DNA from: Verrucomicrobiia bacterium
GTDB lineage: Bacteria > Verrucomicrobiota > Verrucomicrobiia > Limisphaerales > UBA11358
DNA length: 64,000 nt
Direction of reading: 5' to 3'
NCBI GenBank assembly: GCA_049692125.1
Contig: JBAVOO010000038.1
Location: 5,588 to 69,587 of the forward strand
In this document: piece by piece, positions 2,996-41,675 of the stretch
How the letters are laid out: every line of letters starts with the position of its first letter
How positions within the stretch are numbered: the stretch's first letter is position 1
The notes under the pieces: model-generated
Told to the model about the DNA's origin: nothing
Database searches by the model: none
Seen by the model: the letters and a program-made list of their open reading frames with translations, nothing else
Made by a program: the position numbers and the translations under genes

Positions 2996-3159
2996 GTTAA
3001 AGCGGTTGATTTAATCCACCGCGGATCCGGTTTGACGTGAAGTTCGCGGCCTGGCAGGCGTGTTTCGTCCGTCCGGCCAACCCGTTTCGGCCAAAGGCGG
3101 TGTATTGAACACCGCCCGGGCAAATTAGCGCGGTGCGGCGGGCAAGTCCGGGGACTGTC

Positions 3160-3303
3160 CCCCGTAGCGCAGGTTTCCAAACCTGCTGTATCGCCGATTT
3201 CCAAATCGGCAGCGCACCGAAACTCCTGCGCCCATTGAGCCTTTCCAAGTTCGCGGATTTGGAAATCCGCGACACAGCCGACTTGGAAGTCGGCGCTACG
3301 GGG
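3160..3303. repeat. Family A multi-hairpin palindromic repeat (type copy)
   Basis: Bounded by CCCCGTAGCGC ... GCGCTACGGGG. It contains four short stem-loops: gcaggtttccaaacctgc, gccgatttccaaatcggc, cgcggatttggaaatccgcg, gccgacttggaagtcggc. Related copies lie at 16086, 16708, 21494 and 36277. Confidence 0.8.
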
Positions 3304-3386
3304 GGCAAACTGGTACAGCGGGGCGGTCATATGAAATTTTCGCTATCACCGGGGGTGTTTTCGAGTATCATGCACTCAGTCGTTTT

Positions 3387-6300
3387 ATGGCCGTCGCTTT
3401 ACAATTCATCCTGAACGGCCGGATCGTCAGGGTTGAAAATTGTTCTCCGAACACGACGCTGCTTGAATTCCTGCGTCGCGCCGGCCTGACCGGCGCGAAG
3501 GAAGGTTGCGCCGAGGGCGACTGCGGCGCGTGCGCGGTCGTCATGGTTGACCGTGACGTGCAAGGGCGGCCTTGTTATCGCGCCATCAACAGTTGCCTCG
3601 TGCCGCTCTGCCTGATGGCGGGGCGTGAAATCGTCAGCGTCGAAGGCGTCGCGTCCGGTCAAGGCCTTCATCCCGTGCAGCGGAAAATGGTCGAGTGCCA
3701 CGGGTCCCAATGCGGCTACTGCACGCCGGGGTTCATCATGTCGCTCTTTGAGGGTTATTACCGCGACGACATCCATCAGCACGACGAACTGGACGATCAA
3801 CTCAGCGGCAATCTATGCCGCTGCACCGGCTACCGCCCGATTCGCGACGCAGCCATTGAAGCGTTTTCACTTCGTAGGAGTCGAGGTAACGAGACTCAAA
3901 CTAAAAGCAAAAATGAATTGGAGACTCCTTACGTCGTCTCCTACGGTCAGGATATTTTCGCCAAACGGCTGAAAAAGGCCGGCACCGGGCCGGACGGTGT
4001 CGAGTACGAATTCGGAAATGAGAAATTCTTCCGGCCAACCTCGCTGGTCCGGCTTCTGATGTTGCTTCAGCAGTTTCCCGACGGGCAACTCATCGCCGGG
4101 GCGACGGAACTGGGCCTCGACATCACCAAGCGTTACAAGAAATTCCGGACGCTGATTTCCGTCGAAGCCGTTTCCGAGCTGAATGGCATCCAATCCACTG
4201 AAACCGAATGGCAGATCGGTGCGGCGGCGACGCTGACGCAGATCGAGGAAAAAATGGCGGCAGAATTTCCCGCGCTCGGCGACATGTTGCGCGTGTTCGG
4301 TTCGCGGCTGATTCGCAATCGCGCCACGATGGGCGGCAACCTCGTCACCGCTTCGCCCATTGGCGACAGCGCGCCCGTGCTGCTGGCGTTGGACTCGAAA
4401 GTGGTGCTTGTAGGACAGGCTTCCAGCCTGTCTCCATCTAAAACGGAAAAGTTAGAGACAGGCGCGACGCCTGTCCTCCAGGAGCGCATTTTGCCGATTG
4501 AGCAATTCTTCGTCGCCTACCGCAAAACCGCGCTTCAGCCCGGCGAGATCCTGAAAACCATCATTGTGCCGCGCGGGGTGCCAAAACCGGGACTGGCGCG
4601 TAAATGTTCGTGGTTCAAAGCGTCCAAACGGCGCGAGATGGACATCAGCACGGTGGCCGCCTGCTTCACGGTGGATCTGGACGAACAGAACGTCGTGCGT
4701 TATGCGCGTCTGGCCTACGGGGGCGTGGCGGCGATGCCCGCCCGCGCGAAGAAAACCGAGTCGGCACTGTCCGGCAAAGTCTGGAGCAACGAAACCATTG
4801 CCGGCGTGCTGCCCATTTTGCGGACGGAGTTCAACCCCATCTCCGATGTTCGCGGCTCGGCGGAGTATCGCCGCGGATTGATCACCGGCTTGCTGGAAAA
4901 GTTTTTTCACGATTCGGAGGGGCGAGTTACACGAGTCCTTGACTCAAATGGAATTGATTTGGGGCTCGCAGAGTTCGCCCCTCCGAAACAGTCAAACCGC
5001 CCTCCGCCGCACGAAAGCGGCCACAAGCACGCCACCGGCGAGGCAATCTACACGGATGATTTCGGCGCCCGAAAACAAATGCTCGAAGTCTGGCCGGTGT
5101 GTGCGCCTCATGCTCGCGCGAAAATCTTGAAGCGCGACGCTTCGGCGGCAAAGCAGATGCCGGGAGTCGCCGCGGTTTTGCTGGCGGAAGATGTGCCGGG
5201 GTTGAACGATGTCGGCGCCGTGCGGCGGGACGAAATCCTGCTGGCGGACAAGGAGGTTTTTTATCACGGCCAGATCATTGCGCTGGTTGTCGGCGAAACT
5301 CAGGAAGCCTGCCGCTCCGCCGCGGATAAAATAATTGTCGAATACGAACCGCTGCCGCCCCTTCTGAAAATCGAGGAGGCCATCGCGCACAATAGCTTTC
5401 ACACCGAGCCGAATTTCATCCGGCGCGGCGACGTTCAGGGGGCGTTAAAAAAATCTCCGCAGGTTCTTGATGGGGAATTTTACATGGCCGGGCAGGAACA
5501 TTTTTATCTGGAAATGCAGGCGGCCTGCGCGGAGCCGGGCGAGGATGGCTCGATGTTCGTGATGTCCTCGACGCAGCATCCGTCCGAGGTGCAGCACATC
5601 GTCGCACACCTGTTGCACGTGCCGGTGAATCACGTCGTCGTGCAAAGCCCCCGCATGGGCGGCGGCTTTGGCGGCAAGGAAACGCAGGCTGCCACCTTTG
5701 CCGCGCTGGCGGCGCTGGCGGCGGCGAAAACCAAACACCCCGTGCGCGTGCGCGTGAACCGCGATCTCGACATGATGATTACCGGCAAGCGTCATCCGTT
5801 TCTGGCGAAGTTCAAAGTGGGCTACAATTCCGACGGCGATTTGCTCGCGGCAAAAATCGAATTGATCTCCAACGGCGGCTGGTCCCTCGATTTGTCCGTG
5901 CCGGTGACGGACCGCGCGGTGTTTCATCTGGACAATGCGTATTTTATCCCGGCGGTTGAATTTTCCGGGCAGGTCGCCAAAACCAATCTGGCGTCGAACA
6001 CGGCATTTCGCGGGTTCGGCGGACCGCAAGGCATGCTGGTCATCGAGGAAATTATTGACCGCATTGCGCGGCGGCTCGGCAAAGCGCCGGAGCAAATCCG
6101 CGAGCGGAATCTGTATCGCGGCAATGGCGAAACGAACACGACGCATTACGGACAGGAAATCGAGGACAACCGCATCCAGCGCGTCTGGCACGAATTGAAG
6201 GACAGCACCGGGTTTGAAAAACGTCGGGGGGAAATTGCGAAATGGAATGCGGACCATCCGCATCGCAAGCGCGGACTGGCCATGACGCCGGTGAAATTCG

Positions 6301-8657: not shown

Positions 8658-10058
8658 ATGCTCGAAAGATTTTTCAAGCTTTCGCAAAACCAAACCACGG
8701 CGCGCACGGAAATCCTCGCGGGTGTCACGACGTTCCTGACGATGGCGTACATCATCGTCGTGCAACCGGCGGTGTTGTCGGGCGCCATGTTCGGGGCGCC
8801 GACGGGCATGGACTTTGGCGCGGTAACCACGGCCACGTGTCTTGCCGCCGCGCTGGCCACGGCGCTCATGGCGTTGCTGGCGCGTTATCCCATCGCGCAG
8901 GCGCCGGGCATGGGCGAAAATTTCTTCTTTGTGTTTTCGGCCATCCCCGCCGCCGCCGCCGCCGGTTTCACCAACAGCTGGCAGGTGGCGCTGGGAACAG
9001 TTTTTGTATCGGGGATTTTATTTTTGATTCTGTCGCTCGCCGGTCTGCGCGAAATGATTTTCAACGCCGTCAGCCCCAGCCTGAAATGCGCGATAGCGGC
9101 GGGGATCGGCCTGTTCATTGCGTTCATCGGGCTGCAAAACGCCGGCGTCATCATCAAAGACCCCGGCTCGGCGGTGAAGTTGAACACGCACTTCGCCTCG
9201 CCCGACCTGATTGTGTTTTTCGCCTGCCTGCTGACCACGGCAGTGCTACACGCCCGCAAGGTCCGCGGTTCGATCCTGTGGGGCATCGTCGCGGCCACAG
9301 TGCTGGCGGTCGCACTCAAACTGGCCCTGCCGCCGTCCGGCTCTCCGCTGGTCGCCAATTCGATGCTGGTGAAACAATTTGTTTTTGCGAGGGCCGTCGT
9401 CGCCGTGCCGCCGTCGCTCGCGCCGACATTTTTCCAGATGGACATCCTGCACGCGCTGTCGCCGAAAATGTTGCCGTTCGTTTTTGTGTTTCTGTTCATG
9501 CTCACCTTCGACGCCATCGGCACGCTGATTGGCGTTTGCGAACAGGCCGGCTTCATGCGCGACAACAAGCTGCCGCGCGCGAAGCAGGCGATGGTGTCCG
9601 ATGCCGTGGGCACGGTGGCGGGCGCGGCGCTGGGCACCAGCACGGTGACGAGTTTTGTCGAAAGCGCGGCGGGCGTGGAACAGGGCGGACGCACAGGGCT
9701 GACCGGTCTGATCGTGGCCGCGCTATTTTTGCTGGCGCTGTTTTTCAGTCCGCTGATTGCCATGATCGGCAGCTATCCGCCCATCACCGCGCCCGCGCTC
9801 GTCATCGTCGGCGCCATGATGGCGCAAAATGCCGCCCGGATTGACTGGAAAGATTACACGGAATCCGTGCCCGCGTTCCTGGTGATGATTGGCATTCCGC
9901 TGTCATATTCGATTGCCGACGGCCTCGCGCTGGGTTTCATCAGCTACCCGATCATCAAACTTTTCACCGGACGCGGGCGCGAAGCGGGCTGGCTGACTTA
10001 CCTTCTCGCCATCGTGCTCGTGTTGTATTTCATTTTTGTGCGGAGCCGGATGGGCTGA
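8658..10058 (+). CDS. NCS2/AzgA-family purine permease (adenine/guanine/hypoxanthine)
   Basis: 466 aa. MLERFFKL...TTARTEILAGVTTFLTMAYIIVVQP and ...GTSTVTSFVESAAGVEQGGRTGLT... align closely with my recollection of E. coli GhxP/AdeP-type permeases. Confidence 0.92.
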   Translation: MLERFFKLSQNQTTARTEILAGVTTFLTMAYIIVVQPAVLSGAMFGAPTGMDFGAVTTATCLAAALATALMALLARYPIAQAPGMGENFFFVFSAIPAAAAAGFTNSWQVALGTVFVSGILFLILSLAGLREMIFNAVSPSLKCAIAAGIGLFIAFIGLQNAGVIIKDPGSAVKLNTHFASPDLIVFFACLLTTAVLHARKVRGSILWGIVAATVLAVALKLALPPSGSPLVANSMLVKQFVFARAVVAVPPSLAPTFFQMDILHALSPKMLPFVFVFLFMLTFDAIGTLIGVCEQAGFMRDNKLPRAKQAMVSDAVGTVAGAALGTSTVTSFVESAAGVEQGGRTGLTGLIVAALFLLALFFSPLIAMIGSYPPITAPALVIVGAMMAQNAARIDWKDYTESVPAFLVMIGIPLSYSIADGLALGFISYPIIKLFTGRGREAGWLTYLLAIVLVLYFIFVRSRMG

Positions 10059-10128
10059 GATTCATTGCGTTCGGCTTGCAAATCTGAAACGCGGCGTTAC
10101 GCTGATGTATGGAAGTGTGTTATCGGCC

Positions 10129-10386
10129 ATGACCATTAACATTCCAGATGAGATCGCAAACGAATTGGGAACGGCTGCGCGTGACGTGGAGCGCCACGTG
10201 GTGGAAGCGGTCGCGATCGAAGGCTACCGAAGTGGACGGTTTTCCATCGGCTTCATCGGGAGGATACTGGGCTTGAGTTTATGGGACGTGGAAAAATTTC
10301 TTGATCGGCACGGCGCGCGGCATCCTTACACCGCAGACATGCTGCGGGAAGACCGCAATTCGCTGGGCCGGTCTTCCACTCCATGA
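10129..10386 (+). CDS. UPF0175-family antitoxin-like protein
   Basis: MTINIPDEIANELG...VVEAVAIEGYRSGRFSIGFIGRILGLSLWDVEKFLDRHG fits UPF0175. Alternative starts exist at 10105 and 10036. It overlaps the next gene by 4 nt. Confidence 0.7.
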   Translation: MTINIPDEIANELGTAARDVERHVVEAVAIEGYRSGRFSIGFIGRILGLSLWDVEKFLDRHGARHPYTADMLREDRNSLGRSSTP

Positions 10387-10859
10387 TGCTCGTCGTTGCC
10401 GACACGAGTCCGGTGCGCTACCTCGTTTTAGTCGGAGCGATGGATTGCCTGCCCAAACTTTACGATGCGGTTGTGATTCCACCGGCAGTACGGGCGGAGC
10501 TGGCGCATCCGGCTGCGCCGGAAAAGGTTCGCGCTTGGATTTCAACTCCGCCGGCGTGGCTTTCAATAAAAACTCCCGCGAAAATCCAAACCGATTTGAA
10601 CTTGGGCCTCGGTGAACTGGAAGCCATCGCACTGGCAGCCGAACTTCACGCGGCGGCCTTGCTTCTGGATGATCGTCACGCGAGAGAAGTTGCAATAGCA
10701 CAAGGGTTGTGCGTGGCCGGAACGGTGGGTGTTTTGGAAAAAATGGCCGCTGCCGGTCTGATGGACCTGCGAGTCATCCTGGAGCGATTGCGCCAAACCA
10801 ATTTTCGGGGTGACGAGCGGCTTTTTATTGACGCGCTTGCGCGTTTCGAGAACAAATAA
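10383..10859 (+). CDS. DUF3368 / PIN-like nuclease (toxin partner of UPF0175)
   Basis: 158 aa. N-terminus MMLVVADTSPVRYLVLVG...LPKLY..VVIPPAV..EL is typical of DUF3368 PIN-fold proteins, which are usually paired with UPF0175. Confidence 0.75.
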   Translation: MMLVVADTSPVRYLVLVGAMDCLPKLYDAVVIPPAVRAELAHPAAPEKVRAWISTPPAWLSIKTPAKIQTDLNLGLGELEAIALAAELHAAALLLDDRHAREVAIAQGLCVAGTVGVLEKMAAAGLMDLRVILERLRQTNFRGDERLFIDALARFENK

Positions 10860-12794: not shown

Positions 12795-14312
12795 TCAGTC
12801 ACGCGATTCGACCTGTTGGTTGAACTCTTCAATCAACTGGTCGAAATACGCGACTTCGTCCTCGAACAACGCCCGCCAGTATTCCGGATTCCATTGTTCC
12901 GTCAGCTCGGCTGAAGTTTTCCCCTGCTGCTCGACCCAGGTGTAATACTTGAGATTGTGAATCGCCTTGCGCTCCGGATAGGTCAGTTCCTTGAAGTAAT
13001 CCACACTCTGGTGCGCGAGCGGGCCGGCAAAGTCAGCGACCGCGTCCTGCGCGCGATATGCGCCGCGCTCGTGCTTCAATTCCTCGACGCGCGAGCCGTA
13101 AAGCTCGGTGGAGTCGGTGAACACGGTGAAAATCACATCCCGCTCGGTCAGTTCGAAATGTTTTGCGGTCTTGATGGCGGCGAGCAGGTTGCAGATGCTG
13201 GAAATGCCGAGCAGCGGCAACGATTCCAACTCTTTCGCCTTCACCCCGAGCGAGGCGAGATGTTTCTGGCCGGCGGCTTCGTTGAACACGCGGAGAATTC
13301 TCATGCAATCCTCGTCGTCAATTGCGGCGACCGCGTCAGTGTTGCGGACGTTGTGAACCCACGGGACATGTTTGTCGCCGATGCCTTCGATGCGGTGATC
13401 ACCAAAGCCGTTCATCAGCAGAGTGGGGCACTGCAATGCTTCGGTCGCGACGATCTTCAGGGCGGGATGCTGCTTCTTCAGGTAATCGCCTGCCGCGATG
13501 GTGCCGGCGGAACCGGTTGCGGAAATGTAAGCCGCTGCGCGCAACGGAGCGCGGCGTTCACGCCGCTTCACCGTCCTAGCCGAAGCGGCGTAAACGCCGC
13601 GCTCCGACGCATTAAGTTTTTGAAAAACCTCGTCAATGGCCGGGCCGGTCACGTTGTAGTGAAAGATCGGATTACCGAATTCATCGAACTGGTTGAAGAT
13701 GACGTTCAGTGGGTCCTTTTTCAGTTCCCAACATTTGTCGTAAATCTCCTTCACGTTCGATTCGCAGCCAGGCGTGGCGATGATTTCCGCGCCAATCTTC
13801 TTCAGCCACTCGAAGCGTTCACGCGACATGCCCTGCGGCAGAATCGCGATGGCCGTGCAGTCCAGCACGGCACAGTCAAACGCGCCCCCGCGGCAAAAAT
13901 TTCCCGTGGACGGCCATGCGGCCTTGTGCTTCTCGGGATCGAACTCGCCGCTCACCAATCGCGGCACGAGGCAGCCAAACGCCGCGCCGACCTTGTGCGC
14001 GCCGGTCGGGAAATATTTTCCAACCAGCCCGATGACGCGCGCCTTGACGCCGGTGATGGCCGGCGGAATTTCCAGATAATTCACGCCGCCGTAGAAACCT
14101 GTCTTCATGTCGTTCTTCCAGGTGATGCGAAAAAGATTCACTGGATTCACGTCCCACAGCCCGACGCCTTTGAGCTTTCGCTTGATGGCGGGCGGGATGA
14201 GTTCCGGATTCCGCAGTTGCTTGAACGTGGGCAACACGATGCCGCGTTTGCGGCAGCGCGCCGCGGTTTTCCTGATGACCTCCGGATGCAGACGTTTTAT
14301 GATTTTGGACAT
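12795..14312 (-). CDS. Fold-type-II PLP-dependent enzyme (cysteine synthase / Trp-synthase-beta superfamily), 505 aa, function unknown
   Basis: PLP-lysine context FPTGAHKVGAAFG and Gly-rich loop ISATGSAGTIAAG. It is longer than classical CysK/CBS cores. First gene of the yge-like cluster. Confidence 0.85.
   Translation of the reverse strand: MSKIIKRLHPEVIRKTAARCRKRGIVLPTFKQLRNPELIPPAIKRKLKGVGLWDVNPVNLFRITWKNDMKTGFYGGVNYLEIPPAITGVKARVIGLVGKYFPTGAHKVGAAFGCLVPRLVSGEFDPEKHKAAWPSTGNFCRGGAFDCAVLDCTAIAILPQGMSRERFEWLKKIGAEIIATPGCESNVKEIYDKCWELKKDPLNVIFNQFDEFGNPIFHYNVTGPAIDEVFQKLNASERGVYAASARTVKRRERRAPLRAAAYISATGSAGTIAAGDYLKKQHPALKIVATEALQCPTLLMNGFGDHRIEGIGDKHVPWVHNVRNTDAVAAIDDEDCMRILRVFNEAAGQKHLASLGVKAKELESLPLLGISSICNLLAAIKTAKHFELTERDVIFTVFTDSTELYGSRVEELKHERGAYRAQDAVADFAGPLAHQSVDYFKELTYPERKAIHNLKYYTWVEQQGKTSAELTEQWNPEYWRALFEDEVAYFDQLIEEFNQQVESRD
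13546..13605. repeat. 60-bp near-perfect hairpin inserted in frame in the PLP-enzyme gene
   Basis: Arms ggagcgcggcgttcacgccgcttc and gaagcggcgtaaacgccgcgctcc (23/24 complementary) around a 12-nt loop. Encodes roughly ERGVYAASARTVKRRERRAP on the minus strand. Confidence 0.8.
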
Positions 14313-16085: not shown

Positions 16086-16194
16086 GTGGCGCAGGCTTTC
16101 CAGCCTGCGGGTTCTGGGGACTTTCCAATCCCCAGTCTCTGGAACACGGGACAAGAATGTCCCGTGAACCCGCAGACAGGAATGTCTGCGCTAC
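16086..16194. repeat. Family A multi-hairpin repeat
   Basis: GTGGCGC ... GCGCTAC. Hairpins: gcaggctttccagcctgc, ggggactttccaatcccc, cgggacaagaatgtcccg, gcagacaggaatgtctgc. Confidence 0.8.
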
Positions 16195-16217: not shown

Positions 16218-17711
16218 TCATGGATTAGAGGACGCTTTTGCAGACACTTTGGTTCTTTCAGGTTTTGCCGCCGCGGCAATGGCATCAACGATCTGCTGGT
16301 AGCCAGTGCAGCGGCAGAGGTTTCCTGAGATTGCCGTTCGGATTTGTGTTTCGGTCGGATGTGGATTCAGATCCAGCAGTGCTTTTGCGCTCATCAGCAT
16401 TCCCGGGGTGCAGAATCCGCAGTGGACGGCATCGCAGTCCATGAAGGACTCCTGCAAAAGGTGGAGCTTGCCGCGCTGCATGAGTCCCTCCACGGTTAGA
16501 ACGTGTCGCCCGGCGATTTGTGGCGCGAGAACCAGACAGGAGTTCACCGGCTCGCCGTCGAGCAGCACCGTGCACGCCCCACACTCGCCAATCTCGCAAC
16601 CGCTTTTCGTGCCGGTAAAACCGAGCCGGTCACGCAGCAGATCGAGCAACGTCCAATGGGCGGGAATCGCAAGTGTATGGGAGCGCCCGTTGATGGTCGT
16701 GGTAATCGTAGCGCAGACTTCCAAGTCTGCCGTATTGCTGGTTTCTAAACCCGCGAGCCGTTCGACGTGCTCTGGCGTTGCCGATTTGGAAATCGGCGGT
16801 ACAGCAGACCTGGAAGTCTGCGGTACAGCAGGTTTGTCCCGCAAGGCGGGATGCGCTACTGCGGCTTGTTCCAACGCCCGGCGCACCAGCACGGCAATGA
16901 CGGGTTCCTTGTACTCCGACGACCAGCGCCTTCCGGCCTCTTTTATCATTTGCCCGGCAACTTTCTTTCCGGCGGCGGCGAACAGCTTCACCGCCGGCTT
17001 CTCGCCGACGAGCATCGCTTCGGCGTCCGTCACTCGCTTCCACACGGGGAAGACCGAGCCGGGAACGATGCGCGCATCACCGATTCTTCCATCGTCATTC
17101 ATTTGCAGAATGGCGGCAACACTCAGCCGGGAAGTCGAGAGTGCATTGCGGCGGCCGAGCTTGATGAATGCGCTTCGGGCGTTTGCCGGCAGCTTGGAGA
17201 AGCGGACAGCCGTCAGCAGTTCATCCGGTTTCGCCCTGGTTTGATAGGGTTTGAGGAACAGTTCCGCCAGATCCAGCTCGCGGCGCCCGGTCTTCGATTG
17301 CAGGGTCACGATTGCGCCCAGAGCGATCAGGGGCGGGACGGTGTCAGCGCACGTGGCGGCGTTCATGATGTTTCCGCCGATGGTTCCGCGATTTCTGATT
17401 TGCGGTGAACCGATGGTTGAAGCGGCTGAAACGAGGCACGGAGCAAACGTTCGCAATACGTTCGAACGCAGCAACTGGCTGTGCGTCGTAAGCGGCCGGA
17501 TGAGAATGCCGCCGTCGGATTCGATGATGCCGCCCAGTTCGTTCGCGCGGGAGGTGTCGAGAAGAACCTTGGGCGGCTTCGTTGATGGGTGCCGCAACTT
17601 GATCAATAAATCAGTTCCCCCGGCAAGGACAGAAGCATCGGGACCATGCTCGGAAAGGAGGCTGCACGCCTCAGCGATGGTCGCAACCGGGATGTAATCA
17701 AAAGGTTTCAA
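16218..17711 (-). CDS. Fused FAD-binding (CoxM/YgfM-like) and 2Fe-2S (CoxS-like) subunit of a molybdenum hydroxylase
   Basis: The N-terminal part (LKPFDYIPVATIAEA...LAGGTDLL...GTIGGNI) is a FAD subunit. The C-terminal part (INGRSHTL...GTKSGCEIGECGACTV...CGFCTPGM...CRCTGY) is a FeS subunit. The likely TTG start at 17711 overlaps the upstream TGA. The ORF-track start at 17837 lies inside the upstream gene. Confidence 0.85.
   Translation of the reverse strand: MKPFDYIPVATIAEACSLLSEHGPDASVLAGGTDLLIKLRHPSTKPPKVLLDTSRANELGGIIESDGGILIRPLTTHSQLLRSNVLRTFAPCLVSAASTIGSPQIRNRGTIGGNIMNAATCADTVPPLIALGAIVTLQSKTGRRELDLAELFLKPYQTRAKPDELLTAVRFSKLPANARSAFIKLGRRNALSTSRLSVAAILQMNDDGRIGDARIVPGSVFPVWKRVTDAEAMLVGEKPAVKLFAAAGKKVAGQMIKEAGRRWSSEYKEPVIAVLVRRALEQAAVAHPALRDKPAVPQTSRSAVPPISKSATPEHVERLAGLETSNTADLEVCATITTTINGRSHTLAIPAHWTLLDLLRDRLGFTGTKSGCEIGECGACTVLLDGEPVNSCLVLAPQIAGRHVLTVEGLMQRGKLHLLQESFMDCDAVHCGFCTPGMLMSAKALLDLNPHPTETQIRTAISGNLCRCTGYQQIVDAIAAAAKPERTKVSAKASSNP
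16708..16859. repeat. Family A multi-hairpin repeat forming the FAD/FeS linker
   Basis: GTAGCGC ... GCGCTAC. Hairpins: gcagacttccaagtctgc, gccgatttggaaatcggc, gcagacctggaagtctgc, cccgcaaggcggg. Encodes ...HPALRDKPAVPQTSRSAVPPISKSATPEHVERLAGLETSNTADLEVCAT.... Confidence 0.8.
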
Positions 17712-21466: not shown

Positions 21467-21493
21467 ATTCGCAGGACAAACGTCGCGCCTGTC

Positions 21494-21611
21494 GTAGCGC
21501 AGACTTCCAAGTCTGCTGTATCGCGGGTTTCCCAACCCGCAGCCCGCACAACATCGAACGCCCCGCCGATTTGGAAATCGGCGATACAGCAGGTTGGGAA
21601 ACCTGCGCTAC
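21494..21611. repeat. Family A multi-hairpin repeat
   Basis: GTAGCGC ... GCGCTAC. Hairpins: gcagacttccaagtctgc, cgggtttcccaacccg, gccgatttggaaatcggc, gcaggttgggaaacctgc. Confidence 0.8.
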
Positions 21612-21669
21612 GAGCGATTCTATCCGCCGCTCGGGTGTTGATGGACACGCTTTTCATTCTTCCAGTTCG

Positions 21670-24246: not shown

Positions 24247-26808
24247 TCAACCTTCGTTCAGCGCGGCCAGTTCCTGCGGCGTGCGGTCGCGCATCGAGAT
24301 GGCGCCGGCAAAACATTTCTGCGCGCAGAGCGAACAGCCGACGCAGTGACTGGGGTCAAACGTCGGGACGCCGCGGCGGTCAAGCACGATGGCCTGATAC
24401 GGACAGCGCGTGCAGTTGCCGCAATGCTGGCAAAGGGCGGCGATGACTTGCGGCAGTTGCTTCGTCGGCGACAACGCCCCAAAGTCGGTGATCGGATTCG
24501 GCAGCGCCGAGCCGATGAGTTCCTTGACCGAGCCGAAGCCGCGCTCCGCCATCAGATAACTGAGACCGGAGTGAAGTTCGTCCACGTAACCGAGGCCATA
24601 TTTCATCACGGCGGTGCAGAACTGGACGGTCTGTGCGCCGAGCGCGAGGAAGTTCGCGGCGTCCCGGTAGGTCATCGCGCCGCCGTTGCCCGAGACGGTG
24701 ATGCCCGTGCTGGAAACCTTGGCGAGGGTGAGATTGCTGATCGGCAAAACACCTCCGCCGGACATGCCAATGACCACGCCTTCCTCCCAGCGGCGGTTTT
24801 CCGCTTTGCGGAACGCGAGGGACGGAAAGCTGTTGGCGAGTGTGACACCGGCTTTTTTGCCCGGGTAACGCGCGAAGACTTCCTGAATCGCCTTGATGAT
24901 CGGTTGGATGGCGGTGACTGCGGCGGTGAGCTTGAACAGCTTCGGGTTGTCGTCGTCGCTCGCTTCCATGACCCAATCAACGATCTTCGCGGTCAGGGCG
25001 GCGTTTTGCGAAACAACGTCGCCATGCGTGCCATCGCCGCCTTGCGGACAGGAGAGGCTGTATTCGACCCCCATCGCGCCGGCGTTTTGCAGCTTGCGCG
25101 TGTTGGATTGCCAGACCGCCTTGTCCGCCTTGTCGCTGCCGGTGACCGGGCCGCCGGTCGAGGCGAGCGTCAGGTGATCAGGGAATTCCTTTACGAGCTT
25201 TTTGACTTCGCGACAGACACGGTCGAGCGGATGGCCGGAGACGTTGTCGCAATTGCCGTAGGTCGAGCGCGTGAGCTCGAACATGTAGCCGGCGGGAATG
25301 TGAATCGGCACGTTATCGAACGCGGTCTTCATCACACCACCGGACCAGCCGCGCTCGTAGGCCTTGCGCATCTGCCCGTAGCCATCCGAGTGCGGCGCAG
25401 CGGAGAGCAGGAACGGCGAGAGAATCCTGCGGCCAAAAAAATCGGCAGCGAGTGGCACAGGGCGCAGCGGCACGCCAGCCAGGATGACTCGGCTCTTCGC
25501 GCGATTCTTGAACTTCGGTCGCGCTTCGCCACGAATGAACGCATCGGCTTCTGCGGCGGCGTTCTTGCCGCTGGCGACGGACTCCACCACGGTCGCCGCG
25601 CCGAGCACCACGTCGCCGGCGTGGAAAATTCCCCTGGCTTTCGTGACCGGCAGTTTGGGACGGCTGCCGATGGCGGAAATTACGAGATCGAACTCACGAA
25701 AGACCGGCGATTCCCTTTTGCTGACGATGAAATTCTCCGGTCGCGACTTTTTGCCCGGTGGCAGCATCATGCGCGCAAGGCGGAGGCCGGTGACACGTTT
25801 GCCCCGGTGAACGACGGCCAGCGGCCTGGAGCAACTGGTGATCTCAACGCCGTGTTCGAGCAACATGTCGCGCTCATATTGTGTCAGCGGCATGTCCTGC
25901 TCCCGACGGCGATAAACCAATTCAACCGACGCAGCGCCGAGCCGCCTGGCTGTCGTCGCGCAATCCGCCGCCACCGCGCCGCCGCCGAGGACGGCGACCT
26001 TTTTGCCTTTGAGTTTGAGCTGCTTCTGGTTTTCCAGAAACATCTGCCACGACAGCGTGAGTTCCTCGCCGGGAAGGTTCAGCTTGATCGGTTCAGCCAG
26101 GCCGGCGCATACGATGACGGCATCAAAATTCTCACGGAGACTTTCCAGTGTGATCTTATTCCTGGCAGGGCCGCGCGGCCGCGCGGCCTGGCCGACCGGC
26201 AGGTCGGCCCTGCCATTTTCATTTGGAACGACAATTACCCCATGCTTGAATTCGACGTTACCAAGGCTTTTGAGAAACGCGATGTCCGCGCGAACCACCC
26301 GCTGGTCCAGCCGGAAGTCGGGGATGAGATTCATCGCCCCGCCGGCCCGTTTTTGCTGTTCGAAAATCGCCACCTTGTAGCCGGCTTGCAGGAGCACGCT
26401 CGCCGCGCCCAAACCCGCCGGTCCGGCGCCGATGATGGCGACAGTTTTCCCATTCGGTTCAGCGCGCCGGAATTTCGCCATCCCGGCCTCGCAGGCCTTT
26501 TTAATGACGGTCGCTTGAACAGCGGGAATCTCAATTGGCCGGTCAAAAGTGCGCCGCGAGCATGCTTTCATGCAGAAGTAATCCGGACAGACCACGCCGC
26601 AAACCCAGCCGAGGGGGTTCGCGCCCATGATCGTCGCGGCCGAGCGCCGGAAGTCTGATTTCTCCCCAACCCGCGCCGCCATGATAAAATCCGCGGGCGA
26701 ACAGTGGGCAGGGCAGGCTTCTTGACATGGCTTTTCCTCGCAGTAAATACACCGGTCCAGTTCCGCCCGGAATTGGGCGTCGGTGAGTGAGCCGTCATTC
26801 GTTTTCAT
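24247..26808 (-). CDS. YgfK-like oxidoreductase: GltD/PreT-like FAD/NAD(P) domain fused to a PreA/dihydropyrimidine-dehydrogenase-like TIM barrel with C-terminal 2x[4Fe-4S]
   Basis: N-terminal CIYCEEKPCQEACP; VAIIGAGPAGLGAA; central DHOD/DPD-like barrel; C-terminal CQHCGNCTRCPY...CVGCSLCAQKC. The start is set at ATG 26808 (MKTNDGS). Confidence 0.88.
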   Translation of the reverse strand: MKTNDGSLTDAQFRAELDRCIYCEEKPCQEACPAHCSPADFIMAARVGEKSDFRRSAATIMGANPLGWVCGVVCPDYFCMKACSRRTFDRPIEIPAVQATVIKKACEAGMAKFRRAEPNGKTVAIIGAGPAGLGAASVLLQAGYKVAIFEQQKRAGGAMNLIPDFRLDQRVVRADIAFLKSLGNVEFKHGVIVVPNENGRADLPVGQAARPRGPARNKITLESLRENFDAVIVCAGLAEPIKLNLPGEELTLSWQMFLENQKQLKLKGKKVAVLGGGAVAADCATTARRLGAASVELVYRRREQDMPLTQYERDMLLEHGVEITSCSRPLAVVHRGKRVTGLRLARMMLPPGKKSRPENFIVSKRESPVFREFDLVISAIGSRPKLPVTKARGIFHAGDVVLGAATVVESVASGKNAAAEADAFIRGEARPKFKNRAKSRVILAGVPLRPVPLAADFFGRRILSPFLLSAAPHSDGYGQMRKAYERGWSGGVMKTAFDNVPIHIPAGYMFELTRSTYGNCDNVSGHPLDRVCREVKKLVKEFPDHLTLASTGGPVTGSDKADKAVWQSNTRKLQNAGAMGVEYSLSCPQGGDGTHGDVVSQNAALTAKIVDWVMEASDDDNPKLFKLTAAVTAIQPIIKAIQEVFARYPGKKAGVTLANSFPSLAFRKAENRRWEEGVVIGMSGGGVLPISNLTLAKVSSTGITVSGNGGAMTYRDAANFLALGAQTVQFCTAVMKYGLGYVDELHSGLSYLMAERGFGSVKELIGSALPNPITDFGALSPTKQLPQVIAALCQHCGNCTRCPYQAIVLDRRGVPTFDPSHCVGCSLCAQKCFAGAISMRDRTPQELAALNEG
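26164..26214. repeat. 51-bp GC-rich double hairpin inserted in frame in the ygfK-like gene
   Basis: Sequence ggcagggccgcgcggccgcgcggcctggccgaccggcaggtcggccctgcc, with flanking GGCAGGG/CCCTGCC. Encodes ...GRADLPVGQAARPRGPA.... Confidence 0.6.
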
Positions 26809-27039
26809 AGCCCTGATGCTGATTAACCATTTTATCCTGACATCGCAAGAACATCCCACCCACACACTTATTGCCCTTTGCTTCACTTTTCTTGTCGGTG
26901 ATGGGCGGTTTGCCGTGCCTCAGCCCGATTCGCTCTTTCAACTGCCGTTTGGATGCGGCAAGAACGGTTCCGCTCTCCCGACCGGCAAATCGCCTGCTGC
27001 CGTTGCTCTGTGATTGACAGGACGCTTCCCGAATGATTA

Positions 27040-32105: not shown

Positions 32106-32288
32106 AACGAAAATATTGGTGGTTGGTGCCTGCCCCAAGACACCCCGCGCGACCGAACTGCGCCATGCTGCACTCCGCCCGGCTTGCCGCTCCATTCCGG
32201 CAGCCAAGTTTCGTCGCTCCGCAAAACTAAATGGCGGACCAACAACAGGTTCATTGACGCGGTGACATCTCCGGCCTACGTTCCGGCC

Positions 32289-32900
32289 ATGTGCGCGCGT
32301 TACACCCTCACGCTCGAACAGGCCAGACTGGTCATCGCCGGACTGGTCCACATCTTCGCCTTTGCGCCGCGCTACAACATCGGTCCCGCCCAGCGCGTGC
32401 CGGTAATTTTGGACACCGCCGAGGGCGTCAAGGCCGTGGAAATGCGCTGGGGCATCCCGTCCGCGTGGTCAAAGACGCTCCACATCAACGCGCAGGCCGA
32501 GAACATCCACCAGACCACCACCTTCAAACCGCTGCCGGGCCAGCGCTGCCTGGCGCCGATGGACGGCTTTTACGAATGGAAACCGGACAAGTCGCCCGTC
32601 CGATTCGTCCGCCGCCGGCGGGAACTCTTTTGCGTGGCTGGCCTGTGGGCGGATGATCCGTACCGGTGGGGCGAGGCTCCTGACGAGCCGCCCAAGGATG
32701 GTGGCCGCAAAGAACGGCTCGCGGGGATCAGCCTTCGCCAGGCTGCGGCGCGACAGGCGCTCGCCCCACCGAAACGGATGGAACGGCACGTTCCTTTGTG
32801 CTGCTTACCACCGCCGCCAATCTCATCATTCGGCGGCAAACGCACTTGGAGAACATCTGATCACATTTTACTGGTGGAAACTTGTGCCATTAAGCGGTGA
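32289..32900 (+). pseudogene. SOS-response-associated peptidase (SRAP/YedK family), apparently disrupted by a repeat insertion
   Basis: N-terminus MCARYTL...PRYNIGP...MRWG...NAQAENI...DGFYEW...FCVAGLW is classical SRAP. After the repeat at 32665-32770, the conserved SFVLLTTAAN block is found only in a different frame and no clear HxRMP motif is found. Confidence 0.55.
32665..32770. repeat. Family B repeat (GGTGGGGCGAG ... CTCGCCCCACC) inside the SRAP gene
   Basis: 106 bp with perfect 11-bp inverted termini. Same family as 34544-34621 and 4916-4984. Confidence 0.75.
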
Positions 32901-34443: not shown

Positions 34444-34543
34444 TTTTCCCGCCCCACGCCCCATTCCTTTTCCCAATCATCCAGCGGCGTATCCCGACTT
34501 GGTTCAGATAGTGGGTCAGTTTGAACCTGGATTGGTGGGGCGA

Positions 34544-34621
34544 GACTCCCGGCGGGCCGATTTTGGCAATAAATCCCATCAACCCCGGCTCGCGAGGACG
34601 CTCGCCCCACCAAATTGACCC
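34544..34621. repeat. Family B repeat (intergenic copy)
   Basis: Sequence ggtggggcgagactcc ... ggctcgcgaggacgctcgccccacc. Confidence 0.75.
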
Positions 34622-37757: not shown

Positions 37758-38732
37758 TCATCCGCCGATGGCGGTCATCGGGCGGCAGGGCTGGTATTGA
37801 TTGCGGAACTGGTGTTCCAGCGGTTTCACTCGCAGCGCGGTTTCCAGCAATTCCCGCAATGCGCCATCGCTGGCGCCGCTCCGCAACGCCGCGCGAAGAT
37901 CCACTTCGACATGGTTGCCGAGACAGGGACGCACCTTGCCGTCGGCGGTCAGCCGCATCTTGTTGCAGTTGTCGCAGAAATGCTCGTTCGTCAGCGCGCC
38001 GACGAAGCCAACCATGGCGCCGGTTTGTTTCAGCCGGAAATACTTCGCCGGCCCGTGGCCGAGACGGCACTCCGGCTGCGGAATCAATTCATCGTGCCGG
38101 GACAGGAATTGCATCACCTCGCCGCAGGGCAGGAAATTTTTCTCCGTCAAAACCTCGGTCGTCGTCAGCGGCATCAATTCGATGAGTCGCAGCGGCAGGC
38201 CGTGTTCCGCGGCGAACCGGACCAGCGGCCAGATTTCCGCCTCGTTCACGCCGCGCATGAGCACACAGTTCAGTTTCACGCGTTCAAAACCAGCGTCCAC
38301 CGCCGCGCGGATGCCGGCCAGCACGCGCGCCACGTCGCCGCCGGTGATGCGGTGGTAAATCGCCGGGTCCAGCGCGTCGAGGCTCACGTTCACCGTGCGC
38401 AAGCCGGCATCGCGCAAGGCTTTCGTGAGCGCGGCCAGCTTCATTCCGTTGGTGGAAAGCCCGATGCATTCCACGCCGGGAATTGCCGACATGGCGCGGA
38501 CGATTTCCGGCACGTCGCCGCGCACGAGCGGTTCGCCGCCGGTCAGCCGGAATTTGCGGAAGCCCAGCCCCGCCGCCACGCGCACGACGCGGACGATTTC
38601 CTCCGCCGTCAGATGGTCGGACTGGCGTTCCCAGCCCTTGTAACCCTCCGGCATGCAGTAGAGACAACGCTCGTTGCACCGGTCGGTGACCGAGATGCGC
38701 AGGTAATCAATTTTTCGTCCAAACGGATCCAT
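37758..38732 (-). CDS. moaA: GTP 3',8-cyclase MoaA (radical SAM)
   Basis: YLRISVTDRCNERCLYCMP; C-terminal CDNCNKMRLTADGKVRPCL. Confidence 0.93.
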   Translation of the reverse strand: MDPFGRKIDYLRISVTDRCNERCLYCMPEGYKGWERQSDHLTAEEIVRVVRVAAGLGFRKFRLTGGEPLVRGDVPEIVRAMSAIPGVECIGLSTNGMKLAALTKALRDAGLRTVNVSLDALDPAIYHRITGGDVARVLAGIRAAVDAGFERVKLNCVLMRGVNEAEIWPLVRFAAEHGLPLRLIELMPLTTTEVLTEKNFLPCGEVMQFLSRHDELIPQPECRLGHGPAKYFRLKQTGAMVGFVGALTNEHFCDNCNKMRLTADGKVRPCLGNHVEVDLRAALRSGASDGALRELLETALRVKPLEHQFRNQYQPCRPMTAIGG

Positions 38733-38770
38733 GCAAATTCATTTTAAACCACGAAACACACGAAAAAATT

Positions 38771-38836
38771 GGAACGCCGAGCACCGTCTCGGCTCGATTC
38801 CAATGATTTTCGTGCCGAGGCAGTGCTCGGCGCTCC
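38771..38836. repeat. Family D repeat (GGAACGCCGAGCACCG ... GTGCTCGGCGCTCC), intergenic copy
   Basis: Nearly identical core to 41225-41296. It is flanked by cacgaaacacacgaa / ttcgtgtttttcgtgg inverted motifs. Confidence 0.75.
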
Positions 38837-38871
38837 GTTCAGTTGCCTTCGTGTTTTTCGTGGTTTCCATT

Positions 38872-39360
38872 TTATTTCTCGTGCGGATCTTCGCCGCGCA
38901 AATGCGCCAGCCCTTCGCGGATGGCCGGCGCGAGAATTTCCAGGCACTCGCGCACTGCCGACGGCCTGCCCGGCAGATTCACAATCAAACACGCGCCGCG
39001 CGTCCCGGCCACGGCGCGCGACAGGATGGCCGTCTTCACCCGCGTCAGCGATTGCATCCGCATTGCCTCGCCGAAACCCGGCAGCTCTTTTTCCAGCACG
39101 GCACTGGTCGCCTCCGGCGTCACATCGCGCGCGGAAATTCCCGTGCCTCCCGTCGTCACCACCATATCACATTTTTGCACGTCGGCGAGCTTTCTCAATG
39201 CCGCCGAAATCAATTCCACCTCATCCGGCACGATAAGCGACTCGAATTTCACGGCGTCGCCGAGAAATTCGCGCAACACGTTCTCAATCTCCGGCCCGCT
39301 GCGGTCGGCGTAAACGCCCGCCGAGGCGCGGTCGCTGACGGTGAGGCGGCCGATTTTCAT
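38872..39360 (-). CDS. mog: Molybdopterin adenylyltransferase MogA
   Basis: VSDRASAGVYADRSGP, TTGGTGISARDVTPEA and PGFGEAMR match E. coli MogA. Confidence 0.88.
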   Translation of the reverse strand: MKIGRLTVSDRASAGVYADRSGPEIENVLREFLGDAVKFESLIVPDEVELISAALRKLADVQKCDMVVTTGGTGISARDVTPEATSAVLEKELPGFGEAMRMQSLTRVKTAILSRAVAGTRGACLIVNLPGRPSAVRECLEILAPAIREGLAHLRGEDPHEK

Positions 39361-39385
39361 GATTGTTCTCGACGCGCGCGATAGC

Positions 39386-39469
39386 GTCTTGGACTGCGGC
39401 AGCCCTCTGCCGCTTTGGAATCACCAGTCCGCGCGCAAAAAGCGCCAGAGGGCTGGCGCACTCCAAGAC
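39386..39469. repeat. Family E repeat (intergenic copy)
   Basis: Sequence gtcttggactgcggcagccctctg ... cagagggctggcgcactccaagac. Confidence 0.65.
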
Positions 39470-39489
39470 CTGGCGGAAGCACGAGCGAT

Positions 39490-39948
39490 TCACTCCAAGT
39501 CATGTTTCTCCTTTGTAACCACGTGTACATTTTCAATCCGCATGGTTTTGTCCACCGCCTTGCACATGTCGTATAGCGCCAGCGCGGCCACGGTCACGCC
39601 TGTCAACGCCTCCATCTCCACACCCGTCTGCGCGCAGGTCTCGGCGATGCAGATAATCTCAATTGCCACCCGTCCAACGCGAAAACTCACCTCGACATGA
39701 TCCAGCCCCAGCGGATGACAAAGCGGAATCAGCTCCGCCGTTCGTTTGGCGGCCTGGATGCCGGCGATTTGCGCCACGGTCAGCACGTCGCCCTTCGGCA
39801 AGACATTCTTTTTGAGGGCGTGAATGGTGGCTGGCGCACAAACCAGCCTGCCCTCAGCCACAGCGCGACGGCGCTGCACCGGCTTGTGGCCGACGTTGAC
39901 CATGCGCGCGCCGCCGTCGGCGTCGAGATGTGAAAATGTCTTTTTCAT
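39490..39948 (-). CDS. moaC: Cyclic pyranopterin monophosphate synthase MoaC
   Basis: MVNVGHKP...KGDVLTVAQIAGIQAAKRTAELIPLCHPL...GVEMEALT. Confidence 0.92.
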   Translation of the reverse strand: MKKTFSHLDADGGARMVNVGHKPVQRRRAVAEGRLVCAPATIHALKKNVLPKGDVLTVAQIAGIQAAKRTAELIPLCHPLGLDHVEVSFRVGRVAIEIICIAETCAQTGVEMEALTGVTVAALALYDMCKAVDKTMRIENVHVVTKEKHDLE

Positions 39949-40016
39949 TCAATTTAGGCGGTTCAGCAGCACCGCCCTGCCAACAAGGGTAGGGCGGCGC
40001 TGCCGCGCGGCCTGAT

Positions 40017-41675
40017 TTATCCGCCGCCAAGCATAGCCGTCACTGGCAAAAAATCCACCCCGGCGAATTTTTCGATTACACCCTGGTTGGCCGGCACGCG
40101 GACCAGCGCATTCGCCGCCGCCAGGCAGGTGATGTCGCCGGAACTCGCCCAGGCCAGCGGGCGCAGGCGCGGCGCGGCATCATTCCATTCCCATCGGGCC
40201 GGCCAGAGCGTATCGCGCGGGCAGGGTTTGTCGTCGAGTTTTTCAGCAAGCTGCCCGCGCAGAAATTCCGGTGGTACACCGCCGGTCAGACCCGCCAGCG
40301 CCGTGGCGACGGCAAAATGGAAACAGACGAAATGCGAGAGCGGGTTGCCCGGCAGCCCGAAGGCCACGCGCGGGCCGTTCACGCCGAAGATCAGCGGCCG
40401 GCCGGGGCGCAGGTCAATCTGGCTGAATACGATTTCAAAGCCGAGCCGCTCAAATAACGCACGGGTAAAATCGGTTTCGCCCACGCTGGCGCCGCCGGAA
40501 ACCAGCAGCACGTCGGCGTTGCCGATAGCCGATAGCCGATAGCCGATAGCCGATTTTGCCCCCTCGAAATCCTCCGGCAAATGGGTTTGCTCCAGGTCGC
40601 ATGGAAAACTCTGGAGCAGGGCGCGGATGAGGATGGAATTGCTGTTGCGAATCTGGCCCGGTTTCGGCGTTCGGTCCGGCGGCACGATTTCATCACCGGT
40701 CGTAAAATGAACGACGCGCAATCGCGGGCTGACGGACGGATTGACATTTCCCGTCGTTGCCAGGATTGCCAGCGCACCGGCATTCAGTTTTGTTCCCGTG
40801 GACACAAGCGGCTGGCCTTGCCGCACCTCCTCGCCGCGCCGCCGGACGTTTGTCGAAATCTCCTGGCGCAAGAGACGGAGTTTGTCGCCGTCGCGTTCGA
40901 CGTATTCCTGCATCACCACGCGCAGGTTGTCGCACGGCAGCGCCGCGCCGGTCGCCACGCGCACGGCTTCGCCAGGTTTGAGCGGGCGCGGTTTCCAGTC
41001 GGCAGCATGAATCGTGTCCACGACGGAAAAAGTTTTCGACTCATCATCGGCGAGGATCGCATAACCGTCGCGCGTCGAGCGGTCCACCGGCGGCAAATCT
41101 TCCGGCGCGCAAACCGTTTCGCGCAGGACGCGCCCCAGCGCCTCGGCCAACGGCGTGCGTACGGCGGGCAACGGTTGGCAACGGGAGCGGATTTCTACAA
41201 TTGCTTCGTCCAGAGAGAGCGGTTGGAGCGCCGAGCACCGGCTCGGCGTGGTTCCAATGATATTTTGATTCGTGCCGAGGCGGTGCTCGGCGTTCCGGGC
41301 GCTTCGTTTCCAAATCGGCACGTCCTGCTTGAGGCGGTCCATGAATTCAGCCAGCAACGCAATGGCCTCGCCGCGATGCGGCGACGCCACGCCGACGTAA
41401 ATGGCCGTTTCGCCGGCGGGAATGACGCCGACGCGATGAATCACCCTGGCCGCCCGGCAGGGATGGCGCGCGGAAATGTCCTGCAGCAGCCGTCGGATTT
41501 CGCGCCCGGCCATTTCGGGATAGGCTTCGTATTCGAGGGCGCGGATGGCCTGGCCGTTTTCCTCACCACGAACCACCCCGCGAAATTCAAGCCACGCGCC
41601 GGCCGTGCCGGGTTGCCCTGGCGGTGAAATATTTTCCGCGATGGGCTGGTCGGTGAATTGGATTTCGATTTCCAT
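40017..41675 (-). CDS. MoaE-MoeA fusion (molybdopterin synthase catalytic subunit + molybdopterin molybdotransferase)
   Basis: Residues 1 to about 135 are MoaE (EYEAYPEMA...HRVGVIPAGE...SPHRGEAI...DVPIWK). From LSLDEAIV...AEALGRVLRE...STRDGYA onward it is MoeA. Single uninterrupted ORF of 552 aa. Confidence 0.9.
   Translation of the reverse strand: MEIEIQFTDQPIAENISPPGQPGTAGAWLEFRGVVRGEENGQAIRALEYEAYPEMAGREIRRLLQDISARHPCRAARVIHRVGVIPAGETAIYVGVASPHRGEAIALLAEFMDRLKQDVPIWKRSARNAEHRLGTNQNIIGTTPSRCSALQPLSLDEAIVEIRSRCQPLPAVRTPLAEALGRVLRETVCAPEDLPPVDRSTRDGYAILADDESKTFSVVDTIHAADWKPRPLKPGEAVRVATGAALPCDNLRVVMQEYVERDGDKLRLLRQEISTNVRRRGEEVRQGQPLVSTGTKLNAGALAILATTGNVNPSVSPRLRVVHFTTGDEIVPPDRTPKPGQIRNSNSILIRALLQSFPCDLEQTHLPEDFEGAKSAIGYRLSAIGNADVLLVSGGASVGETDFTRALFERLGFEIVFSQIDLRPGRPLIFGVNGPRVAFGLPGNPLSHFVCFHFAVATALAGLTGGVPPEFLRGQLAEKLDDKPCPRDTLWPARWEWNDAAPRLRPLAWASSGDITCLAAANALVRVPANQGVIEKFAGVDFLPVTAMLGGG
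40521..40554. repeat. Tandem heptanucleotide GCCGATA x4.8 inside the MoeA-coding part
   Basis: gccgata gccgata gccgata gccgata gccgat, read directly. Encodes ...SAIGYRLSAIG... on the minus strand. Confidence 0.85.
41225..41296. repeat. Family D repeat forming the MoaE/MoeA linker
   Basis: 72 bp, ggagcgccgagcaccggctcggc ... gccgaggcggtgctcggcgttcc. Encodes ...RNAEHRLGTNQNIIGTTPSRCSAL.... Confidence 0.75.

Follow-up and report, generated by a model that had tools for sequence, protein, structure and literature searches.

Did a short palindromic repeat fuse the two genes of a bacterial xanthine dehydrogenase (XDH) into one, or did it enter a gene that had been fused long before? This question is raised by a stretch of 64,000 nucleotides (nt) from Verrucomicrobiia bacterium (assembly GCA_049692125.1, contig JBAVOO010000038.1, positions 5,588 to 69,587 of the forward strand), herein referred to as the window. 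A gene in the window encodes a single-chain XDH, in which counterparts of the bacterial subunits XdhA, with iron-sulfur (FeS) and flavin adenine dinucleotide (FAD) domains, and XdhB, with the molybdenum (Mo) domain, are joined by a linker. A 69-nt segment of this linker resembles two other repeats in the window, together herein referred to as family B, and the original prediction was that this repeat had turned XdhA and XdhB into one chain. The analysis supports the opposite order of events: the segment is very probably a diverged family B copy, put in-frame into the pre-existing linker of an anciently fused XDH.

The 1308-amino acid (aa) XDH is encoded by a single open reading frame (ORF; Table 1), unbroken and in one frame throughout, as had been predicted. 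In its N-terminal part the Pfam domains Fer2, Fer2_2, FAD_binding_5, and CO_deh_flav_C were found, the last ending at aa 508. The C-terminal part contains Ald_Xan_dh_C, starting at aa 550, followed by MoCoBD_1 and MoCoBD_2. This is the order of two [2Fe-2S] clusters, FAD, and molybdenum cofactor of the XdhAB-type Mo-hydroxylases. In the alignments to solved structures, residues 349-459 of Rhodobacter capsulatus XdhA (462 aa in total) correspond to aa 408-519, and residue 4 of XdhB corresponds to aa 537; the Mo part thus begins at the equivalent of the XdhB N-terminus, again in agreement with the original prediction. The Mo part matches R. capsulatus XdhB with 586 bits, and its motifs GGKE, DR, and GEPP align with Glu232, Arg310, and Glu730, which we take to be the catalytic or substrate-binding residues of XdhB; all three are conserved. 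Genes for a xanthine/uracil permease and an adenine deaminase are located 3' of the XDH gene, and the same gene order was found in three related loci (L003, L006, and L008). Judged from its sequence and neighborhood, the ORF encodes a genuine single-chain XDH belonging to a purine-catabolism cluster. A toxin-antitoxin-like UPF0175/DUF3368 pair (10036-10859, + strand) is located between the permease and adenine deaminase genes, which are immediate neighbors, without this pair, in L006 and L008.

The palindromic segment encodes the peptide EGRVTRVLDSNGIDLGLAEFAPP (aa 511-533) and accounts for 23 of the approximately 29 residues of the FAD-to-Mo linker. Its layout is GGAGGGGCGAG-TTACA-CGAGTCC-loop-GGGCTCG-CAGAG-TTCGCCCCTCC, and the palindrome is somewhat wider than the element. 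The RNA fold of this wider palindrome has a free energy of -42.5 kcal/mol (z-score of -7.1), and none of 200 shuffled sequences was equally stable. A sliding minimum free energy, computed over 80-nt lengths of sequence, was unable to tell the elements from GC-rich coding sequence. Nine relatives with separate genes have xdhA stop codons 4-8 codons past LLEKFF or LLAKFW and xdhB start codons 4-10 codons ahead of HES. Because of these gene ends and the XdhA and XdhB alignments, the element can be placed exactly at the XdhA/XdhB junction; a 69-bp, 23-codon repeat is indeed in frame where a stop and a start codon would be expected. The length of the element is a multiple of three, no stop codon occurs in it, and both the ORF and the catalytic residues are intact, as for the palindromic elements of Rickettsia considered below. 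In an AlphaFold2 model of aa 190-700 (mean predicted local distance difference test score, pLDDT, of 67.7), the linker is modeled as coil. The element (model residues 322-344) lies within this coil, and a continuous stretch with pLDDT below 50 (324-373) starts inside it. The 23-codon segment would be translated with the rest of the gene, and the predicted tryptic peptide is VLDSNGIDLGLAEFAPPK. A plasmid search gave no match.

Membership of this segment in family B was analyzed by motif counts and by a covariance model. The exact motif GGNGGGGCGAG was found five times in the window versus 0.26 expected, and all five occurrences are arms of the three elements. The box GGCTCGCRRRG was found four times versus 0.68 expected, three of these within the elements, which bears out the internal ggctcgcagag box that had been described. 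The same architecture had been claimed for two further sites; the one at 32665-32770 was recovered as described, and the one placed at 34544-34621 was recovered 10 nt away from that position, at 34534-34611. A contig scan revealed the arm motif in at least 120 metagenome contigs, from which 39 complete elements were recovered, so the family is both dispersed and multi-copy, with three copies in 64 kb. The consensus of the 39 elements is GGTGGGGCGAG-CGTCCTCG-CGAGCCG, a loop of 0-60 nt, and CGGCTCG-...GGA..-CTCGCCCCACC. The covariance model, R1, was built on 27 metagenome copies, and neither XDH genes nor the window itself contributed any of these. All three window elements were matched by R1 over the full length, with 69 bits for 34534-34611, 47 bits for 32665-32770, and 37.8 bits (E-value of about 1e-6) for 4916-4984. 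The XDH copy is diverged, with 10 of 11 and 9 of 11 positions conserved in its two outer arms and with bulges of 5 nt versus 8 nt in the family. The terminal inverted repeats have 11-nt arms, or 26 nt with imperfect pairing, as in MITEs (transposable elements of the miniature inverted-repeat type). The family B termini have no GTAG or CGTC tag, and the bases ahead of them are variable (CC, TT, CG). Membership of 4916-4984 in family B is well supported by these sequence comparisons, though not beyond doubt.

The age of the fusion was analyzed by comparison with relatives. All of the best 120 homologues are fused proteins of 1204-1390 aa, at 70-92% identity; wherever a source is named, the label is that of a Limisphaerales or Verrucomicrobiota metagenome-assembled genome (MAG). 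A family B-type linker was found in only 13 of the 121 aligned sequences (the window XDH and the best 120), the others having different palindromes or none. Among genome assemblies, all sampled Verrucomicrobiota loci in which the junction is readable in one frame are fused as well; by their labels, these include Limisphaerales, Chthoniobacterales, Methylacidiphilales, subdivision 6, and Verrucomicrobiales. Linkers without a hairpin, 22-34 aa in length (z-score of about 0; for example, FHEAPWSEATAPLPDPVIPSDRPLP), were found mostly in the more distant fused relatives, labeled as Chthoniobacterales, subdivision 6, Methylacidiphilales, Verrucomicrobiales, and others. The flanks LLEKFF... and ...RPPPHES are homologous across all fused relatives, and the core alone is exchanged. 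The nearest relatives with split genes are loci labeled as Planctomycetota and Polyangiales, nine of which (within L066-L076, 53-56% identity) were found to be split by tblastn and a frame check. In these loci, the xdhB start and the xdhA stop overlap by 4 nt, as ATGA or GTGA. In a library-wide search with a junction-spanning query, many long proteins were matched across the junction in one piece; separate XdhB-type proteins of approximately 775-840 aa (43-49% identity) were also found, with matches starting at query positions 156-168.

Because relatives without the repeat are fused too, and with homologous flanks, the fusion is older than the family B insertion. A comparison with related xdhAB loci had been proposed along with the original prediction; it showed repeat-free relatives that are already fused, the outcome named there as contradicting the prediction, and the claim that the repeat joined the two chains has to be given up. 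On the evidence of these sequences, family B did not create the XDH fusion. Since the split relatives have a 4-nt overlap and no spacer, a single-base change suffices to fuse the frames, and there is nothing for a repeat to replace. Seven loci with a Verrucomicrobia-type XDH (L009, L010, L015, L016, L018, L024, and L060; 63-77% identity) are on contigs labeled as Sulfopaludibacter, Acidoferrum, Bifidobacterium, Binatia, and Saccharimonadales; these are probably mis-binned MAG contigs.

In total, at least nine classes of palindromic peptides, recognized from the encoded sequence, were found at the same linker site across the XDH orthologues, and for five of them the DNA was read. These are classes B (EGRVTRV..LAEL.PP), C (VGDEVTSL..LLTSSPT, GTAG-tagged), D (AADVSRL..LTSAAT, GTAG-tagged), E (SLTPGFSPV..), F (ERGVHAASP..LKSAL, a family also present at 13545-13606 of the window), G (RSADSLVR..ADKAVR), H (TRVSRVGSGVAPEP..RRDAENH), I (AAGILPA..AGRRQHA), and J (GQASRLSP..LETGATP). 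In every class the flanks …GAAAAGTTTTT and CCNCCNCACGAAAGC… are homologous, and the linker DNA of the palindrome-bearing orthologues has z-scores of -4 to -10. The family B copies of seven XDH genes (the window, L001, L002, L006, L078, L079, and L080; 70-92% identity) can be aligned over the full length, including the loop, whereas the loops of the two non-XDH copies in the window are unrelated to it. This pattern points to one old insertion event in the XDH gene, followed by vertical inheritance. On a neighbor-joining tree of the 121 XDH sequences, built after masking of the variable segments, 9-10 changes of state are needed for the 13 B-type linkers versus 12.5 for shuffled labels, and approximately 59 for all linker classes together. 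The linker type is thus almost uncoupled from the gene tree, despite the orthology that the B copies show by sequence, and its distribution requires that the conserved flanks have undergone recombination or that elements have been replaced repeatedly. A composite linker was observed in one homologue (P0039), with a B left arm followed by a class C element.

A similar linker was found in a 552-aa fusion of MoaE and MoeA (40017..41675, - strand). Its interdomain linker, SARNAEHRLG...PSRCSALQ, is a palindromic element with a hairpin at 41218-41303. All of the best 120 MoaE-MoeA homologues are fused, and their linkers are assorted unrelated palindromic peptides; this linker behaves as a hotspot like that of XDH. 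The number of classes at one site, their near independence of the tree, and the similar MoaE-MoeA linker suggest a broader proposal, which we regard as possible but unlikely: the interdomain linkers and surface loops of Limisphaerales enzymes would be landing pads, at which palindromes of many families are exchanged as cassettes, through hairpin-targeted insertion or through recombination of the conserved flanks. As a further part of this proposal, stop-free elements may have supplied the original linker when gene pairs overlapping at ATGA became fused.

For the XDH linker itself, the following course of events is proposed. Family B would be a widespread, non-autonomous palindrome of the MITE type or of the type of the REPINs (doublets of repetitive extragenic palindromic, REP, sequences), with inverted arms of approximately 26 nt (GGTGGGGCGAG-bulge-CGAGCCG) around a variable loop. 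One copy would have been inserted, or swapped in, in-frame and without stop codons, into the weakly constrained linker between the FAD and Mo domains. The enzyme that received it would already have been fused, as the ancient verrucomicrobial single-chain XDH, and the element would be translated as 23 residues of disordered linker. The insertion may have been tolerated because of the lack of a fixed structure in this hinge. The most economical reading of the data is that the disordered hinge tolerates a selfish palindrome free of stop codons. Several points weigh against it. The insertion event is one that we infer, and no empty/filled-site pair with a clean boundary or a target-site duplication was found, the homologues holding other sequence at the XDH linker. 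Neither Y1/RAYT (REP-associated tyrosine transposase) nor any other transposase was found among the approximately 30 window ORFs scanned, in 64 kb of the genome. An ungapped weight matrix of the family B arms fails on the inner arm of the XDH copy because its bulge is 3 nt shorter, and a generic hairpin of another family (4409-4480) still scores 25 bits with R1. Finally, the neutrality of the insertion is an assumption.

Four other explanations were weighed. That the single chain arose when the repeat replaced the stop codon, the spacer, and the start codon between xdhA and xdhB would fit the position of the repeat exactly at the former gene junction, its lack of stop codons, and its length, a multiple of three. 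Nevertheless, the best 120 homologues and all readable sampled Verrucomicrobiota loci are fused, most of them without family B, the linkers of more distant fused enzymes are mostly non-palindromic, and the ATGA overlap of the split relatives leaves no spacer and needs only one changed base; the probability of this explanation is close to nil. A variant of it places an earlier stop-free palindrome at the origin of the ancestral verrucomicrobial fusion, later replaced or eroded, so that the linker would have been repeat territory from the beginning. It is favored by the length of the fused linkers, at least 22 aa versus the approximately 10-12 aa expected from a simple frame fusion of overlapping genes, and by the occurrence of a palindrome exactly in the fusion linker of two independent fused enzymes of the window, XDH and MoaE-MoeA. 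In addition, REP-type elements are usually located between co-directional genes (PMC3733652). However, no residual hairpin was found in the linkers of the fused relatives farther away, among them Chthoniobacterales and subdivision 6 (z-score of about 0), the MoaE-MoeA fusion is common to all of the best 120 homologues whichever element is present, and no direct trace of an ancestral palindromic element was found. This variant is therefore improbable in our estimation.

The hairpin could instead be maintained for a function of the RNA, such as an interdomain pause of the ribosome that would aid co-translational folding or cofactor loading, or a role in mRNA stability or processing, the peptide being incidental. 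The hairpin is very stable and is located exactly between folding units, and hairpins recur at both interdomain linkers of XDH as well as at the MoaE-MoeA linker. One stem pair shows a compensatory change from G-C to A-U in two orthologues; covariation was seen in only this one of 23 stem pairs, and with a single compensatory pair the test lends no support to selection on RNA structure. In L078 and L080 the stems show decay, and many orthologues have no hairpin, including all those labeled as Chthoniobacterales or subdivision 6. No Rfam family was matched at the element, and a scan of 4300-5200 gave no terminator-like site on the + strand. The sole site of this type in that scan is on the - strand (4476-4456), within the insert at 4409-4480, and the number is as expected by chance. 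Conservation of the hairpin for its RNA is considered very improbable. As for the possibility that the enzyme is made as two chains, by an internal start or by proteolysis of the linker, the fusion being only apparent, an in-frame TTG is present inside the element (4958-4960), and the predicted disorder of the linker would make it accessible to proteases. By direct reading, the stretch from the element to the conserved PHES motif contains neither an ATG or GTG codon nor a convincing Shine-Dalgarno sequence, and a single frame is maintained in well over 100 orthologues, which leaves this explanation almost no weight. A palindrome tolerated in a pre-existing linker remains the preferred reading, and it can be compared with known systems.

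The Rickettsia palindromic elements (RPEs) are short palindromes found in-frame in unrelated housekeeping genes, where they encode stop-free peptides at positions compatible with the protein fold, and several of their families coexist (reviewed in PMC10969869). The window elements are similar to RPEs in being in-frame, stop-free coding insertions at a fold-compatible site and in belonging to several families. They differ in host, RPEs being found in an obligate intracellular alphaproteobacterium and the window elements in a free-living, Limisphaerales-like verrucomicrobium, and in size, approximately 150 nt versus 50-110 nt, with unrelated sequence. A further difference is the number of peptide classes, at least nine, that a single XDH site contains in different orthologues. 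Within the same phylum, intragenic GTAG/CGTC REP dimers encoding 20-30 aa are described by Di Nocera et al. (2013; PMC3733652) as commonest in Opitutus terrae, sometimes with two per gene. The GTAG tag is shared with the XDH inserts at 3872-3946 and 4409-4480 and with linker classes C and D. In contrast, family B has no GTAG/CGTC tag, and neither of its arms is self-complementary on its own. A text search of the same paper returned neither XDH nor interdomain linkers among the gene classes, the emphasis there being on DNA replication and repair genes. The insertion of in-frame palindromes in the window is the phenomenon known from Rickettsia RPEs and from the intragenic REPs of Opitutus.

REPINs consist of two inverted arms with a short variable spacer, are mobilized by RAYTs, and are typically extragenic (Bertels and Rainey, 2011, PMC3116915). 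Family B resembles them in the inverted arms and variable spacer forming one long hairpin and in being multi-copy and non-autonomous. The XDH copy differs in being intragenic and in-frame, and so does not share the extragenic location of REPs and REPINs, and in the lack of a RAYT among the window ORFs scanned. On the side of the enzyme, the domain order is that of eukaryotic xanthine oxidoreductase and of R. capsulatus XdhAB, including the catalytic Glu, Arg, and Glu. The FAD-Mo linker of the eukaryotic enzyme is at the same topological position. However, the window linker has approximately 29 aa versus a gap of about 40-50 aa between the aligned parts in the rat and bovine chains, and its sequence is unrelated and largely repeat-derived.

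These results correct an attractive but wrong inference of a gene fusion made by a repeat, and they provide a clear case, in a free-living bacterium, of selfish palindromes written into proteins. One enzyme contains three palindromic inserts, one per flexible segment (Table 1), and the same codons in its orthologues are subject to rapid turnover among unrelated elements. The interdomain linkers of this lineage derive for the most part from repeats, and so they confuse alignments, gene trees, fixed-identity clustering, and the assembly of metagenomes. Targeted turnover, if true, would be a mechanism generating linker diversity, and the pattern of hotspot and turnover is possibly worth a separate study.

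Table 1. Positions in the window of the XDH gene, its palindromic inserts, and the other family B copies.
Feature	Position	Strand	Evidence
Single-chain XDH with FeS, FAD, and Mo domains, 1308 aa	3387..7313	+	ORF, Pfam, XdhB alignment
Third in-frame palindrome, GTAG-tagged, GTAGGAGTCGAGGT...ACGTCGTCTCCTAC, encoding approximately LRRSRGNETQTKSKNELETPYVVSY, FeS-to-FAD linker	3872..3946	+	Alignment, fold
Second in-frame palindrome, GTAG-tagged REP dimer, encoding approximately GQASSLSPSKTEKLETGATPVLQ, beta-hairpin tip of FAD domain	4409..4480	+	Alignment, fold, structure model
Family B palindromic repeat, in-frame, 69 nt/23 codons, hairpin extending to 4913-4987	4916..4984	+	Fold, covariance model, structure model
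Family B copy, 106 nt, exact GGTGGGGCGAG/CTCGCCCCACC termini, within or at the end of SRAP-domain ORF 32184..32900	32665..32770		Covariance model, 47 bits
Family B copy, 78 nt, intergenic, near family consensus	34534..34611		Covariance model, 69 bits

Two of the three palindromes of the XDH gene are located upstream of the FAD-Mo linker. The second one has a 99-nt fold of -45 kcal/mol and forms a loop between two strands in the AlphaFold2 model. At this position most homologues have a 3-residue turn; a 92%-identical homologue has a different element, and an 86%-identical one has none. The third has a 102-nt fold of -30.5 kcal/mol and coincides with a local dip of identity to 44-63%. The encoded insert (..NELETPYVVSY..) is absent in the five closest homologues, which have AERHAKNGED instead, and present in several homologues at approximately 77% identity. 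An identity step was observed between the XDH gene of the window and that of L001: the DNA is 100% identical from approximately nt 4640 to the gene end, whereas 5' of this point identity per 150-nt window is 44-92%, mostly 81-89%, with dips at both upstream inserts. This step could be the result of recombination between strains or of a chimeric metagenome assembly.

In-frame inserts were also found in other genes of the window. The gene for a PALP enzyme (12795..14312, - strand) has a clean 20-aa insert, SERGVYAASARTVKRRERRAP, of the 'ERGVHAASP' family at 13545-13606, defined against the L006 orthologue with flanks of approximately 95% identity; an empty site and a target-site duplication were sought for this insert too and not found. 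A gene similar to that for dihydropyrimidine dehydrogenase has a palindromic insert, GRADLPVGQAARPRGPA, in its Pyr_redox_2 domain, with a hairpin at 26163-26215. The ORF concerned (24247-26886, - strand, 879 aa) joins a PreT-like part (Fer4_20 and Pyr_redox_2) to a PreA-like part (DHO_dh and Fer4), which are two genes in L079.

The family B copy at 32665-32770 directly follows an SRAP match that is truncated (to profile positions 1-136 of 214) in a + strand ORF and may disrupt or remodel the C-terminus of this gene. GTAG-tagged REP arrays (GTAGCGCAGAC.TCC..GTCTGC...) were found at 3156-3307, 16086-16194, 16708-16826, and 21492-21613; one of them immediately precedes the start of the XDH gene, and there is overlap between some of them and long ORFs without an assigned function. 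The MoaE-MoeA gene belongs to a molybdenum-cofactor biosynthesis cluster (37758-41675, - strand), together with genes for MoaA and MoaC; the window thus contains this cluster as well as Mo-enzyme genes, and palindromic elements are located between the genes of this cluster at 38735-38877 and 39386-39469.

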